The notes beneath the pieces are model-generated. The model did no database searches, was not told the origin of the DNA, and saw only the letters and a program-made list of their open reading frames with translations. This document shows, piece after piece, positions 271 to 21,724 of a stretch of DNA of 64,000 bases. Source of the DNA: Escherichia phage vB_EcoM_FB. The first letter of the stretch is position 1; each line of letters begins with the position of its first letter. The stretch lies in the sequence record MT682711.1; one strand, 5' to 3'. The translations under genes and the position numbers were made by a program.

Positions 271-1133
271 ATGTTTGGACATTGGTATAATAGTTCGCTA
301 CGTCGCTATATTGTTTTGATGGGTGATTTATTTTCCCATGTTCAAGTAGCACGTCAAAGAGAAGATACAGGACTTAAATTTATTAAGGTTCCTATTACGT
401 ATGCTTCTAAAGAAAGATTTATGGCAAATTTGGGTAAATGGACGGCAGTACAGAATATTCCAAATCCTAATATGACAGCTAAAGAACGGGCCGAACAAAA
501 AGCTAAAGTGGAAACAGTTCTTCCGCGTATGAACCTCCAAATGGTTGATATGCTTTACAACTCACAATATAAAACAGCCCTTCAAAACAGAACACAAATT
601 CAATTTGAGAATGGCGACCCACGTAAGCGTGTCAGCCAATATTCTCCTACTCCGGTTAAAATGATTTTCGAACTGGGTATTTACACTAGAACCCAAGATG
701 ATATGTTCCAAATTGTAGAACAGATTATGCCTTATTTCCAACCTCACTTCAATACAACTATCACTGAACTCTATACAAACGAAATTAAATTTGACCGTGA
801 TATCCGTATTGTGTTCCAATCTATAGCAATGGATGAACAATTAGAAGGTGATACCACTTCTAGACGTCGCTTAGAGTGGTCTATGATGTTTGAGGTTAAT
901 GGTTGGTTATATCCTCCTGTGAAGGAAATGGAAGGCGAAATTAAAACCATTTATCTTGATTTCTTTGCCAACTCAAAGGAACTCGCTCCTGAAGGTAATT
1001 TCGAATCGGTTGATAGCGAAGTGGTTCCTAGAGGTGTAGAAGAAAAAGAATGGGACGGTAAGTCCATTCAAACATATTCACAAGATATTCCAGTGCCTGT
1101 CGAGCCAGCGCCTCCAGCACCAAGGAGAAACCC

Positions 1134-1137
<4 letters not shown>
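271..1137 (+). CDS. 15: tail sheath stabilizer / tail completion protein gp15
   Basis: ATG 271 preceded by AGGAGG; translation [13 protein letters not shown]... matches my recollection of T4 gp15 along its length. Confidence 0.9.
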
Positions 1138-3447
<2,310 letters not shown>

Positions 3448-17530: not shown

Positions 17531-19027
17531 ATGCAAATTCAAGTACATTTTGATAATTTTAGTCATGTCCGTATTGAATGCGATGAATCTACATTCTACG
17601 AACTCAGAGACTATTTTAGCTTTGAAGCTGATGGATATAAATTCAACCCTAAATTTCGTTATGGCCAATGGGACGGACGTATTCGCCTTCTGGATTACAA
17701 CCGTAAACTTCCTTATGGATTGGTCCCTCAAATTAAAAAGTTCGCTGAACAATTTGAATACTCTCTGTGGATTGACCCACGTATTCTTGAACAGGAAGAT
17801 ATTTCTCGTGAAGATTTTGATTCATGGGTGGCTTCTCAAGAAATTTATTCAGGGTCTACCAAGATTGAGCCTCATTGGTATCAGAATGAAGCCGTATACA
17901 ACGGCCTGACAAAACGTCGCGCAATTCTGAATTTACCTACATCTGCAGGTAAATCATTAATCCAGGCACTCCTGAGTCGATATTACGTTGAGAACTATGA
18001 AGGTAAAATCCTCATCTTAGTTCCTACTACTGCACTTGTCGACCAGATGATTAACGACTTCATCGATTATCGTCTGTTCCCTAAAGCCGCAATGCTTGGT
18101 ATTCGTTCAGGTACTGCTCGTGATTCCGATGCAATGATTTATGTTTCAACTTATCAAACCGCTATCAAGCAACCTAAAGAATGGTTTGCTCAGTTCGGTA
18201 TGTTTATGAACGACGAATGCCATTTGGCTACAGGTAAATCTATTTCTACTATCATCGAAGGCCTAACCAACTGTATGTTTAAATTCGGTTTGTCGGGTTC
18301 TTTAAAAGATGGTAAAGCTAATTTAATGCAATATATGGGCCTGTTTGGTGATGTGTTTAAGCCAGTATCCACCTCCCAATTAATGGAAGAAGGACAGGTT
18401 ACTGACCTTAAAATCAACAGTATTTTCCTTCGATACCCTGATGAATTCACCGTTAAGATGAAAGGTAAAGATTACCAATCAGAAATTAAAGTCATTACTA
18501 AGGCTACCCGTCGTAATAAATGGGTTGCTAATTTAGCTGTTAAGCTCGCTAAGAAAGAAGAGAACGTATTCTTGATGTTTAAAAACATCGAGCACGGTAA
18601 AACTCTTTTTGAAATGGTCAAAGAGCAGCATAAAGAAGTTTATTACGTATCAGGCGAAGTTAATACAGAAACTCGTAATGCTCTTAAGTTAATGGCGGAA
18701 AACGGTAAGGGTATTATTGTTGTGGCAAGTTATGGGGTATTTTCTACAGGTATTTCTGTTAAGAATCTCCATCACGTAGTATTTGCCCATCCTGTAAAAT
18801 CTAAAATTATTGTGCTGCAAACCATCGGTCGTGTACTTCGTAAACATGCATCCAAGACCACCGCGCAGGTTTGGGATATTATAGACGACATGGGCGTTAA
18901 GCCTAAATCAGCAAATGCCAAAAAGAAGTATGTTCATTTGAATTATGCATTAAAACATGCCTTAGAACGTATTCAACGTTATGCTGACGAAAAATTTAAT
19001 TACGTAATGAAACAGGTGGATTTATGA
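17531..19027 (+). CDS. uvsW: UvsW RNA-DNA and DNA-DNA helicase
   Basis: 498 aa; Walker A TSAGKSLI and DECH box; matches my recollection of T4 UvsW. Confidence 0.95.
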   Translation: MQIQVHFDNFSHVRIECDESTFYELRDYFSFEADGYKFNPKFRYGQWDGRIRLLDYNRKLPYGLVPQIKKFAEQFEYSLWIDPRILEQEDISREDFDSWVASQEIYSGSTKIEPHWYQNEAVYNGLTKRRAILNLPTSAGKSLIQALLSRYYVENYEGKILILVPTTALVDQMINDFIDYRLFPKAAMLGIRSGTARDSDAMIYVSTYQTAIKQPKEWFAQFGMFMNDECHLATGKSISTIIEGLTNCMFKFGLSGSLKDGKANLMQYMGLFGDVFKPVSTSQLMEEGQVTDLKINSIFLRYPDEFTVKMKGKDYQSEIKVITKATRRNKWVANLAVKLAKKEENVFLMFKNIEHGKTLFEMVKEQHKEVYYVSGEVNTETRNALKLMAENGKGIIVVASYGVFSTGISVKNLHHVVFAHPVKSKIIVLQTIGRVLRKHASKTTAQVWDIIDDMGVKPKSANAKKKYVHLNYALKHALERIQRYADEKFNYVMKQVDL

Positions 19028-19251
19028 AGTCCTTTAAAGAAGTTATCTATGAAGCCTCTATCGAGAGCTTCATGTCTAAAATTAGTTCTTGTCAAACCAT
19101 GGACGGTTTGGAGGAATTGGAGAAGTATTACAAAACCCGAAGTAAAGAAGCCGAACTTCGTGATTCGGATGATATCAGTGTCCGTGATGCCCTAGCAGGT
19201 AAACGAACTGAATTAGAATCTATGGATGATGAAGAAGAGGAAGATTTCTAA
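19024..19251 (+). CDS. uvsW.1: UvsW.1 small acidic protein
   Basis: 75 aa, ATGA overlap with uvsW, acidic C-terminus; T4 synteny. Confidence 0.8.
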   Translation: MKSFKEVIYEASIESFMSKISSCQTMDGLEELEKYYKTRSKEAELRDSDDISVRDALAGKRTELESMDDEEEEDF

Positions 19252-19259
19252 ACAAAAAA

Positions 19260-19281
19260 GGCCCAACCTTTCGGAAGGGCC
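19260..19281 (-). terminator. terminator hairpin between uvsW.1 and uvsY.-2 (convergent)
   Basis: GGCCC...GGGCC stem; on minus strand followed by TTTTTTGT. Confidence 0.55.
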
Positions 19282-19310
19282 AATAACCATAAATGGCTAT
19301 ACACACTAGA

Positions 19311-19478
19311 CTAAAGTAGTAATTGGGTTTCGTTCAGCTGTTCTTCAGTGTTTTCCGTAACCGGCAAGCTTTGAACGTAATTATAGCATGAGCCCGGATG
19401 AACAGGACCTTTTTCTGTTTCAACAACCAATGCAGCATCGATTGGAGTTTTACAGACAACGCAAATCTTATCTGACAT
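19311..19478 (-). CDS. uvsY.-2: UvsY.-2-like small Cys-rich protein (55 aa); not in ORF track
   Basis: ATG 19478 with AAGGAGA SD 5 nt upstream; MSDKICVVCKTPIDAALVVETEKGPVHPGSCYNY...; zinc-ribbon-like CxxC...C. Confidence 0.55.
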   Translation of the reverse strand: MSDKICVVCKTPIDAALVVETEKGPVHPGSCYNYVQSLPVTENTEEQLNETQLLL

Positions 19479-19506
19479 GATTGTCTCCTTAGTTTATCTT
19501 ACATAT

Positions 19507-20205
19507 CTATTTATTAACTAAATTCTTTTCAAATGTTTTAACCATATAGGCCACATCTAAATCAGGAAATCCGTTCTCAACTATTATGTGTCGAAATTTC
19601 CTTCTTTTAGGCATTCCTTCCTTTATCCAAAGTTCATGAATTTCCTTTTCAAATTCCCATAATTTACTTCTCATTGAAGGCCTAGGCTGAGAATGTTTAC
19701 CTATATGAGCTTCATTAGCCTCTTTAGTACGTTTTTTACCCGACTTAGCTAACGACATAGCCTTTTTAGCTTCTTCTGTATGAGAATATGGATTTCTTTT
19801 ATGGCCATCACTTATGGCTTTTTTGGTTAATTCAGACCTTGGGATGCCTCTTATTTTTGATGCGCCTTTTTCAACAGATTCAGGGGATTTGGATGTACAA
19901 CTACCTCCTTCACCACCTGGCTTCATATTCATACAGCGAATACCTTTACCAAACTTATCCCAGGCCTCTTCTATCAAAAGCTCTTCGAATTCATAAGCAA
20001 GTTTTTCAGTATCGAAAAAGGTTCTATCGATTATTTCCATTCGGTACTTTAATCTTTTTGCATAATAGATGTAATTACCTGACCCTACATACTTATCAGA
20101 TATTTTATCAGAAGAATGCTTGCCAAAATACAGCCTAGTTCCGTTAGGCGAGTATACTAAAGTTTGGTAACACATGTGGTACTTTTTATTTTTCACCTGC
20201 TTCAA
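19507..20205 (-). mobile_element. GIY-YIG (Seg-like) homing endonuclease gene at the uvsY.-1 slot
   Basis: GIY-YIG-like N-terminus (MCYQTLVYSPNGTRLYFGKHSS, then DKYVGSG, EELLIEEAW); NUMOD3-like repeats (SHTEEAKKAMS, PRSELTKKAIS); start either TTG 20205 (AGGAA SD) or ATG 20175; overlaps uvsY 3' end. Confidence 0.6.
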
Positions 20206-20623
20206 ATTTCCTGAGCTCCAACATATTCTTTAATGAGAAACCTCTAGATTTGACCGCATCCAATGCCGAACTACAAAAGTCTTGTAATAAGGCCCAATAC
20301 TGGATTGACGTATCGATTTTAATTACGCTTGAATCCGCCGCCATTACAGTCTTTAATTCCGACTTCTCGTACTGGTCCATACAAACCTCATCACCAGGCT
20401 CTCCACGTCCCGTGTAGAAATCTAATCTCTTCTTAAGAGAGGTCTTTTTCTGGATTTCTAATCGCATTATCTCTTTCTTACAATTCGTATATAGTCTTAG
20501 CCATTTGCTGTGCAGCAAAACGTTGTTCTGTACTTCATACTGTAAACGAGTCCCATCAATCTTTAAATCTTCATCTAATGCATCTTGGAACGATTCTAAT
20601 TTATATTCAATCTCTTTACTCAT
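20186..20623 (-). CDS. uvsY: UvsY recombination mediator
   Basis: Start re-set to ATG 20623 (track ORF starts at upstream GTG); TKLQYE..NNV.L.SKWL, RLDFYTGRGE, KSRGFSLKNMLELRKFEAG match my recollection of T4 UvsY. Confidence 0.9.
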   Translation of the reverse strand: MSKEIEYKLESFQDALDEDLKIDGTRLQYEVQNNVLLHSKWLRLYTNCKKEIMRLEIQKKTSLKKRLDFYTGRGEPGDEVCMDQYEKSELKTVMAADSSVIKIDTSIQYWALLQDFCSSALDAVKSRGFSLKNMLELRKFEAGEK

Positions 20624-20681
20624 AGCATGTTTCCTGTTGAATGACCGTAGGACCATTATACACCATTCGTTTGTACAGCAA

Positions 20682-21071
20682 TTAACCACTCTGTGAGAGC
20701 TGGATTCTAATTTGCTCTAATGTGTCCGGGTCGTCAACAATACTAAACTGAACTGTTACTATAATAGAGTTGTCATCATAAACAGGGGTTACACCTACAG
20801 CAAGAGCAGAAATTCTGGGTTCGAAGTTCCGCACAGCGGAAACTATATTACGCTTAATGGTGTCTGTGATTAATGGGGTAATATTCTCAAACAACTGATT
20901 GCTAATATCACATCCAAATTCAGGCATAAAAGGGCGTGAACCTTTGCGAGTAGTAATAATGCCTAACAAACTATTTTTTACTGCACGAGCACCTGTAGCT
21001 TTAGCGACGTCTCTATTCCAAGACGTCCTCATTTCAGGGTCTAAATCTGAATACATTTTATTGATATTCAT
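20682..21071 (-). CDS. 25: baseplate wedge protein gp25
   Basis: 129 aa; T4 synteny and sequence. Confidence 0.9.
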   Translation of the reverse strand: MNINKMYSDLDPEMRTSWNRDVAKATGARAVKNSLLGIITTRKGSRPFMPEFGCDISNQLFENITPLITDTIKRNIVSAVRNFEPRISALAVGVTPVYDDNSIIVTVQFSIVDDPDTLEQIRIQLSQSG

Positions 21072-21712: not shown

Positions 21713-21724
21713 TATTTATAAATA
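21713..21724. promoter_or_regulatory. palindromic bidirectional late promoter TATTTATAAATA between genes 26 and 51
   Basis: TATAAATA readable on both strands (plus 21717-21724, minus 21713-21720); divergent late genes either side. Confidence 0.6.

Follow-up and report, generated by a model that had tools for sequence, protein, structure and literature searches.

Freestanding homing endonuclease genes of the Seg type are already well described in T4-like phages. A review (PMC2988022) describes SegA as cutting uvsX and SegE as cutting uvsW, at sites distant from the insertion and with co-conversion, and SegF as cutting gene 56 and mediating marker exclusion. SegH of phages RB3 and T6, likewise the product of a freestanding Seg-type gene with a GIY-YIG domain and NUMOD3 repeats, replaces mobC between nrdD and nrdG (Sandegren et al. 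2005, as cited in PMC2988022). I-TevI, represented by structures 1LN0/1MK0 and 1I3J, is encoded by the td intron, unlike the freestanding gene described here. What is new in the present case is the position between uvsY and uvsY.-2, a locus without a previously characterised Seg-type gene.

The window, meaning the whole stretch of 64,000 nt that was analysed, is from Escherichia phage vB_EcoM_FB (MT682711.1), a T4-type phage of the JS98 group (Dhakavirus). On its minus strand lies an ORF whose longest form, 232 aa from a TTG start, occupies 19507-20205, exactly the extent given in the initial annotation, and the motifs quoted there (CYQ, LYFGKHSS, YVGSG, and EELLIEEAW) are all present in the translation. 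The coding sequence from the GTG start covers 19507-20196 (minus strand, 229 aa, stop codon TAG at 19507-19509); residue numbers below follow the 232-aa form. The upstream neighbor is uvsY (20186-20620, minus strand; Pfam UvsY, 2.8e-53), whose 3′ end is overlapped by the ORF, with gp25, gp26, and gp51 as the next genes beyond it. The downstream neighbor is uvsY.-2 (19311-19478, minus strand; Pfam DUF2685, 2.2e-28), and uvsW (17531-19027) and uvsW.1 (19024-19251) lie on the plus strand. The domain matches on both neighbors bear out the placement between uvsY.-2 and uvsY that had been proposed. Within the window, uvsY is uninterrupted and full length, and the gene stands free between its neighbors with no intron or intein. 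T4 segA is alike in lying directly downstream of a recombination gene, in that case uvsX. The base composition of the gene is not distinct from that of its flanks, and a search with the family HMM found no paralogues in the 64-kb window. The reading preferred here, with a probability of roughly 0.75, is that the product of this ORF is a functional, freestanding member of the T4 Seg family of homing endonucleases, apparently built from a GIY-YIG domain, four NUMOD3-like helices, and a SegA-type helix-turn-helix (HTH) domain, and presumably catalytic.

Comparison with proteins drawn from the T4 genome and the RB3 segH record gave significant similarity to all seven studied Seg proteins. The best-scoring characterised relative in BLASTP was SegH (E 2e-16, 31% identity over 210 aa), and matches were also found to SegE (E 1.5e-11), SegA (E about 6e-12 to 6e-11, full length over aa 1-225, 24% identity), SegF (E 2e-8, 26% identity), SegC (2e-7), SegB (6e-7), and SegD (2e-4), while pairwise similarity to I-TevI was not detectable by BLASTP (E 2.3). 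The alignment with SegA includes the Lys-rich N-terminus (MK..K.KKY), the GIY-YIG core, the NUMOD3-like repeats, and the HTH with its W...ELW...GFP motif. SegA differs in its ATG start, its uvsX locus, and a loop after the 'GIY' strand that is 2-3 residues longer in the window protein, and SegA passes the Pfam GIY-YIG (3e-9) and NUMOD3 models, which the window protein does not. SegH differs in its length of 276 aa, in its locus, and in a C-terminal end of the I-TevI/SegD type rather than a SegA-type domain. SegF resembles the window protein in having a start that overlaps the 3′ end of its upstream gene, gene 56, by 11 nt, and in its C-terminal EIHELW motif; it differs in its ATG start and its locus, and its activity and target are known experimentally, whereas those of the window protein are predicted.

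Broader searches point to the same family. The protein matches the 'homing endonuclease' family PHROG_314 at 1.4e-16, and BFVD matches are Seg-like endonucleases throughout. A phmmer search of 1.84 billion cluster representatives found 476 relatives at E≤1e-3 and just one at E≤1e-30, so the protein appears to lie on a minor and divergent branch within a large family. Sixty-one of the 476 relatives make up alignment A3, among which Pfam matches NUMOD3 in 39, SegE_GIY-YIG in 20, and GIY-YIG in 18. On the window protein itself no curated nuclease model in Pfam or NCBIfam scored above threshold, and PF01541 and PF19835 gave no match even at E≤10. Since T4 SegF, an experimentally established active enzyme (L009 15606-16280), likewise has no Pfam match at E≤10, the missing match is a limit of model sensitivity and not a biological criterion. 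Used as a single query against PDB sequences, the protein retrieved nothing by phmmer, and no GIY-YIG structure came up when the PDB was searched by Foldseek with the full-length model. The A3 profile, on the other hand, aligned with I-TevI in hhalign (probability 95%, E 2.6e-8, 144 columns), and among PDB sequences it matched only 1LN0, the catalytic domain of I-TevI, where the motifs line up. With A3 as its alignment, AlphaFold2 gave a confident model (mean pLDDT 89.9), which predicts a three-stranded sheet with flanking helices, which is the GIY-YIG fold. The proposal that the ORF is a GIY-YIG homing endonuclease is upheld by these Seg, profile, and fold matches.

The GIY-YIG nuclease domain is placed at aa 9-101 (19903-20181, minus strand). 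Its recognizable residues are Tyr13 of the 'GIY' element, Tyr26-Phe27-Gly28 of the 'YIG' element, Lys29-His30, Asp37, Tyr39-x-Gly41-Ser42-Gly43, Glu74, Asn93, and Gly97-Gly98. Six columns (Tyr26, Gly28, Gly41, Glu74, Asn93, and Gly97) are invariant among the 61 relatives and seven more (Tyr13, His30, Asp37, Tyr39, Ser42, Gly43, and Gly98) nearly so, and the window protein has the consensus residue at every one of them. Tyr13, within C-Y-Q on strand beta-1, falls in a column that is Tyr in 59 of 61 sequences and aligns with Tyr6 of I-TevI. On strand beta-2, Tyr26-Phe27-Gly28 (Tyr and Gly in 61 of 61) aligns with I-TevI Y17-V-G19. Glu74 and Asn93, each present in 61 of 61, align with E75 and N90 of I-TevI, respectively. 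The match to I-TevI that had been looked for is therefore found at both Tyr positions, at Glu, and at Asn.

The remaining position is less simple. A central catalytic Arg is given as a feature of the GIY-YIG superfamily (PMC1564403), and the canonical residue, R27 of I-TevI, has no alignable counterpart here: in the hhalign alignment, I-TevI D23-H31 faces a gap across the Seg-like sequences, and the model has a predicted loop at aa 33-43 where I-TevI has helix alpha-1. No basic residue is invariant between YIG and Glu, the best being Lys29 (46/61), His30 (59/61), and Arg51 (K/R in 39/61). I-TevI differs in having the Arg27 helix, which is without a counterpart in the Seg family, and the window protein has no zinc finger. 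The initial annotation had proposed the loss of the catalytic Arg, Glu, or Asn as grounds for discarding the assignment; Glu74 and Asn93 are in place, and the Arg is unalignable throughout the Seg family, including T4 SegA-F and SegH. Because active T4 Seg enzymes share its absence, the missing Arg is best read from the alignments as a trait of the family and not as evidence against the window protein.

The unalignable Arg, together with the absence of any curated nuclease model over threshold, nonetheless favors a different reading, in which the gene is a Seg relic, domesticated or without catalytic activity, kept as a DNA-binding protein or for the expression of uvsY.-2 or an altered UvsY C-terminus. 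It gains some further weight from the T4 endonuclease genes reported in PMC2988022 to embed host-gene signals, from synonymous divergence in the gene equal to that of its flanks, which suggests long vertical residence, and from occupation of the same slot in a lineage only ∼72% identical. However, all family-invariant catalytic positions are kept, the absence of the Arg is common to active T4 Seg enzymes, most close relatives live without the gene, and no uvsY.-2 promoter was found inside it. The pattern of selection also counts against a relic. In comparison with the IME08 orthologue, dN/dS is 0.10 for the whole gene, 0.06 for the nuclease part, 0.09 for the NUMOD3-like part, and 0.23 for the HTH part; in comparison with the more distant orthologue from the uncultivated phage P0002 (L005), it is 0.16 for the whole gene, 0.10 for the nuclease part, and 0.33 for the NUMOD3-like part, with the HTH value not computable (dS saturated). 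The gene is under purifying selection, strongest on the nuclease domain (0.06-0.10 vs 0.09-0.33 for the DNA-binding parts), which argues against a decaying or nuclease-dead relic, and that reading is considered unlikely.

The possibility that the ORF arose by chance or by mis-assembly and is not a gene might be raised by its non-ATG start, by its lack of annotation in the IME08 RefSeq record, and by the annotation of only 141 aa in IME341. It is refuted by intactness in six independent sequences (the window, IME08, IME281, IME341, L005, and the partial contig L019), by dN/dS of ∼0.1, by homology reaching E 1e-151 among close relatives and 1e-16 for SegH, and by the confident fold prediction.

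Downstream of the nuclease domain, four NUMOD3-like helical repeats of ∼18 aa each span aa 104-175 (19681-19896, minus strand; TSKSPESVEKGASKIRGI, PRSELTKKAISDGHKRNP, YSHTEEAKKAMSLAKSGK, and KRTKEANEAHIGKHSQPR) and follow the pattern [ST]-x-E...K..S...G. Two such repeats had been proposed earlier; their NUMOD3-like character holds, but the number is four in both the AlphaFold2 model (helices at 108-118, 125-137, 144-154, and 161-172) and the family HMM alignment. Pfam NUMOD3 reaches the third unit only, below threshold (E 0.012; 16 bits vs a cut-off of 20.4). A feature absent from the earlier description is the C-terminal three-helix HTH-like DNA-binding domain at aa 176-232 (19510-19680, minus strand), which is common to T4 SegA and SegF and carries the motif W-x5-I-x-E-L-W ... 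G-F-P. The NUMOD3-like helices and this domain would together read an extended DNA site. Five database proteins of 260-390 aa (P0013, P0018, P0022, P0057, and P0062) match the C-terminal ∼60 residues or the NUMOD3 region alone, which suggests, at the level of sequence similarity, that the DNA-binding module is common to endonucleases of other architecture.

The 20-nt overlap with uvsY reported in the initial annotation is real as an overlap; its length holds only for the TTG start at 20205 (232 aa). Three starts can be considered. The TTG was not kept as the most likely start, as L005, an orthologue with 68% identity, has TCG there. The ATG at 20175 (222 aa) is conserved in L005; it too was rejected, since it would remove the conserved [FY]-His (Y9, H10) and part of strand beta-1. 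In the family, residues 9-10 are [FY]-His (41 of 61 relatives have the His), and the AlphaFold2 model has the strand beginning at residue 9. The GTG at 20196 is conserved in the window, IME08, and L005, gives an 11-nt overlap, and was picked by gene callers for P0001, P0002, and IME281. It is likely, on this pattern of conservation, to be the start of the gene. A Shine-Dalgarno-like AGGAAA motif (20207-20212, minus strand) lies within the Arg-Lys codons of uvsY and is a putative ribosome-binding element; the arrangement AGGAAA-N10-GTG is identical in the window and L005, whereas type-A uvsY alleles, introduced below, have AGACAA at that position.

At the start of the endonuclease gene there is no ribosome-binding site that is both strong and optimally spaced, and no support was found for a start-sequestering RNA hairpin (z 0.14). 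No sigma-70-like promoter was found on the minus strand near the gene, nor any late-promoter box (TATAAATA) closer to it than 21713, upstream of gp26. No convincing minus-strand terminator was found near the gene; one weak terminator-like hairpin lies inside it, at 20149-20133. Two overlapping TATAAATA boxes on opposite strands are present at 21713-21724, between gp26 and gp51, and no late promoter upstream of gp26-gp25-uvsY and the endonuclease gene lies closer to them than the minus-strand box. Because the gene lacks a dedicated promoter and its start shows no significant RNA structure, we infer transcription by read-through, probably from promoters of gp26, gp25, and uvsY, and weak, uvsY-coupled translation, probably initiated at the GTG within the last uvsY codons from the AGGAAA inside uvsY. 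Expression of T4 seg genes is described in similar terms, as read-through with weak translation, in PMC2988022.

The gene occupies what was earlier called the uvsY.-1 slot. This is right by position, and neither a uvsY.-1 homologue nor the JS98-type 32-aa ORF was found anywhere in the 64-kb window. The slot holds uvsY.-1 in VR5 and T4 and the 32-aa ORF in JS98 and UP19, in each case with no endonuclease gene. Among the dozens of related genomes in the phage collection the only carriers are IME08, IME281, and IME341 (∼91% amino acid identity to the window protein), and of 84 records whose DNA is ≥80% identical over the region, 6 have the gene. When IMG/VR and JGI metagenomes were scanned for further carriers, the yield was IME281, IME341, and a single short contig, OERM01002434.1 (L019). 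Identity to the window protein is 91% in the IME phages, 95% in L019, and 68% in L005. The comparison of phages with and without the gene that had been suggested thus sets three carriers in the collection against JS98, VR5, UP19, and others that lack it. All orthologues, from IME08, IME281, and IME341, from P0002/L005-L007, and from L019, are alike in slot, GTG start, and AGGAAA motif, and the IME08 orthologue differs in its surroundings, the window having a VR5-like and not an IME08-like backbone.

The junctions of the slot can be placed by alignment and translation. At the left junction (19507-19516, minus strand), the endonuclease ORF and the 32-aa ORF of JS98 and UP19 finish with identical codons, AAT AAA TAG, and continue into a common downstream spacer, and the right junction lies at or just past the uvsY stop. 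Besides uvsY.-1, VR5 has an unannotated small frame (L003 1984-2123) that ends in MKSNK and a stop, with its last codons and spacer in common with the JS98/UP19 32-aa ORF and the end of the endonuclease gene. The uncultivated lineage P0002/L005-L007, which is without a close cultivated relative, has the gene in the same slot, with flanking genes only ∼72% identical in DNA. Because of this shared position, and because the gene and its flanks have diverged to a like extent at synonymous sites (dS to IME08 of 0.39 vs 0.40-0.43), the association of the gene with the slot appears to be old. The matching divergence fits long vertical residence and recent homing equally well.

Earlier records of the gene are incomplete. 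The ORF is intact and unannotated in the IME08 RefSeq record (L001 1984-2687), and it is intact and annotated as 141 aa from an internal Met in IME341 (L013 609-1034). UniProt A0A7D5JRF4 is 177 aa long and 100% identical to the window protein, and IME281 is the only record with the 229-aa GTG form, under the name 'putative endonuclease'. No description of the gene turned up in the literature that was searched, reviews included.

Other endonuclease genes lie close by in related phages. In UP19 (L004 828-1523) and, by annotation, in UGJNEcP3/4, another homing endonuclease gene with NUMOD3 repeats (231 aa) lies between uvsW and uvsW.1, and these phages have the type-B uvsY end described below without a gene of the window type. 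The UP19 endonuclease was rejected as a relative of the window gene, as its similarity is at the level of NUMOD3 only. The contig L019, which carries the 95%-identical copy in the same slot, also has a 184-aa ORF at the uvsW/uvsW.1 junction (1133-1687, minus strand) with NUMOD3-like repeats and a SegA-type C-terminal domain. Because of this extra ORF, the L019 gene copy, and T4 segE upstream of uvsW, the uvsW-uvsY interval looks like a hot spot for endonuclease genes. In the window, a second variable patch at the 3′ end of uvsW (18650-18950; 75-89% identical to IME08, JS98, and UP19 and 97-99% to VR5) adjoins the site of the extra endonuclease genes in UP19 and L019.

The 3′ end of uvsY itself exists in two forms. 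The last 70 bp in the window (20186-20255, minus strand), delimited by codon alignment, sliding identity, and megablast, end in DAVKSRGFSLKNMLELRKFEAGEK and the stop codon; this type-B end carries the endonuclease initiation region and is strongly diverged from the JS98-, VR5-, and T4-like type-A end, which ends in DAIKARGFNLKTMHEMRQFEAGK and the stop. Translated, the two end in SLKNMLELRKFEAGEK (type B) vs NLKTMHEMRQFEAGK (T4-like type A). Sliding identity over 20186-20255 is 55-74% to VR5 and JS98 and 91-96% to IME08 and UP19. The window is 99-100% identical to VR5 at about 18750-19200 and about 20350-20750, and within about 19280-20255 it is IME08/UP19-like, VR5-like outside, with a sharp right boundary at ∼20256 and a fuzzy left one. 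The last nine uvsY codons of L005 (RKFEAGEH and the stop), which hold the AGGAAA and the GTG, are as in type B. By megablast, the type-B patch occurs in only eight phages, including all three carriers in the collection; UP19, KIT01, UGJNEcP3/4, and 005 have it without the endonuclease gene, and allele and gene are not strictly linked.

The neighborhood of the gene bears clear marks of recombination. The endonuclease gene and type-B uvsY end on a VR5-like backbone look like a co-conversion tract, as judged from the alignments, although ordinary recombination could leave an identical mosaic picture. With its intergenic position, its sporadic presence among close relatives, and flanks that are mosaic as co-conversion predicts, the gene matches the freestanding mobile element that had been proposed. 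Cleavage in or near uvsY is proposed by analogy with the pairs SegA/uvsX, SegE/uvsW, SegF/56, and SegG/32 (PMC2988022). If a carrier and a relative without the gene infected the same cell, the enzyme would cut the DNA of that relative in or near the uvsY 3′ end, a target position suggested by the same reasoning. Double-strand-break repair on the carrier template would then copy the gene and the adjoining type-B uvsY end into the recipient, and the uvsY.-1 and/or 32-aa ORF of the recipient would be replaced. The type-B end is a candidate cleavage-immune allele, and those type-B phages that lack the gene may have arisen by conversion of the target only or by secondary loss.

These gene-less phages also bear on a reading in which the enzyme is active and its main effect is not its own spread but the exclusion of type-A uvsY markers, or break-induced local rearrangement or amplification. 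UP19, KIT01, UGJNEcP3/4, and 005 are what would be expected if repair converts the site only; marker exclusion by Seg enzymes is established according to PMC2988022, and PMC13096335 reports that SegB drives the amplification of anti-defence loci. The same phages could, however, equally be losses by recombination at the uvsY stop codon, and no anti-defence locus was identified near the gene. As this reading differs from homing only in emphasis and shares its cleavage-and-repair mechanism, it is regarded as improbable as a separate account, and the gene continues to be treated here as a functional homing endonuclease. A more specific and tentative idea, which we consider possible but somewhat doubtful, is that the type-B 70 bp (20186-20255) serve both as the translation-initiation cassette of the endonuclease and as its cleavage-immune allele.

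For annotation, the analysis supplies a gene that is absent, truncated, or vaguely named in IME08, IME341, and the UniProt entry, and gives its likely GTG start. It also indicates that a whole branch of active-looking Seg nucleases, to which T4 SegF belongs, escapes the curated domain models. The genomes form a natural set, with gene and type-B end, type-B end without the gene, and type-A end without the gene, which is suited to the mapping of Seg targets and the study of partial co-conversion. The presence of the endonuclease gene would explain why the uvsY.-1 slot differs in content among Dhakaviruses and why they have two C-terminal alleles of uvsY, a gene on which homing itself depends. 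If the 70-bp end does act as both cassette and immune allele, UP19, KIT01, UGJNEcP3/4, and 005 would be footprints of cut-and-repair events in which the target was converted and the gene was not, and across the Dhakavirus population the element would be rewriting the C-terminus of the very recombination mediator, UvsY, on which its homing relies.
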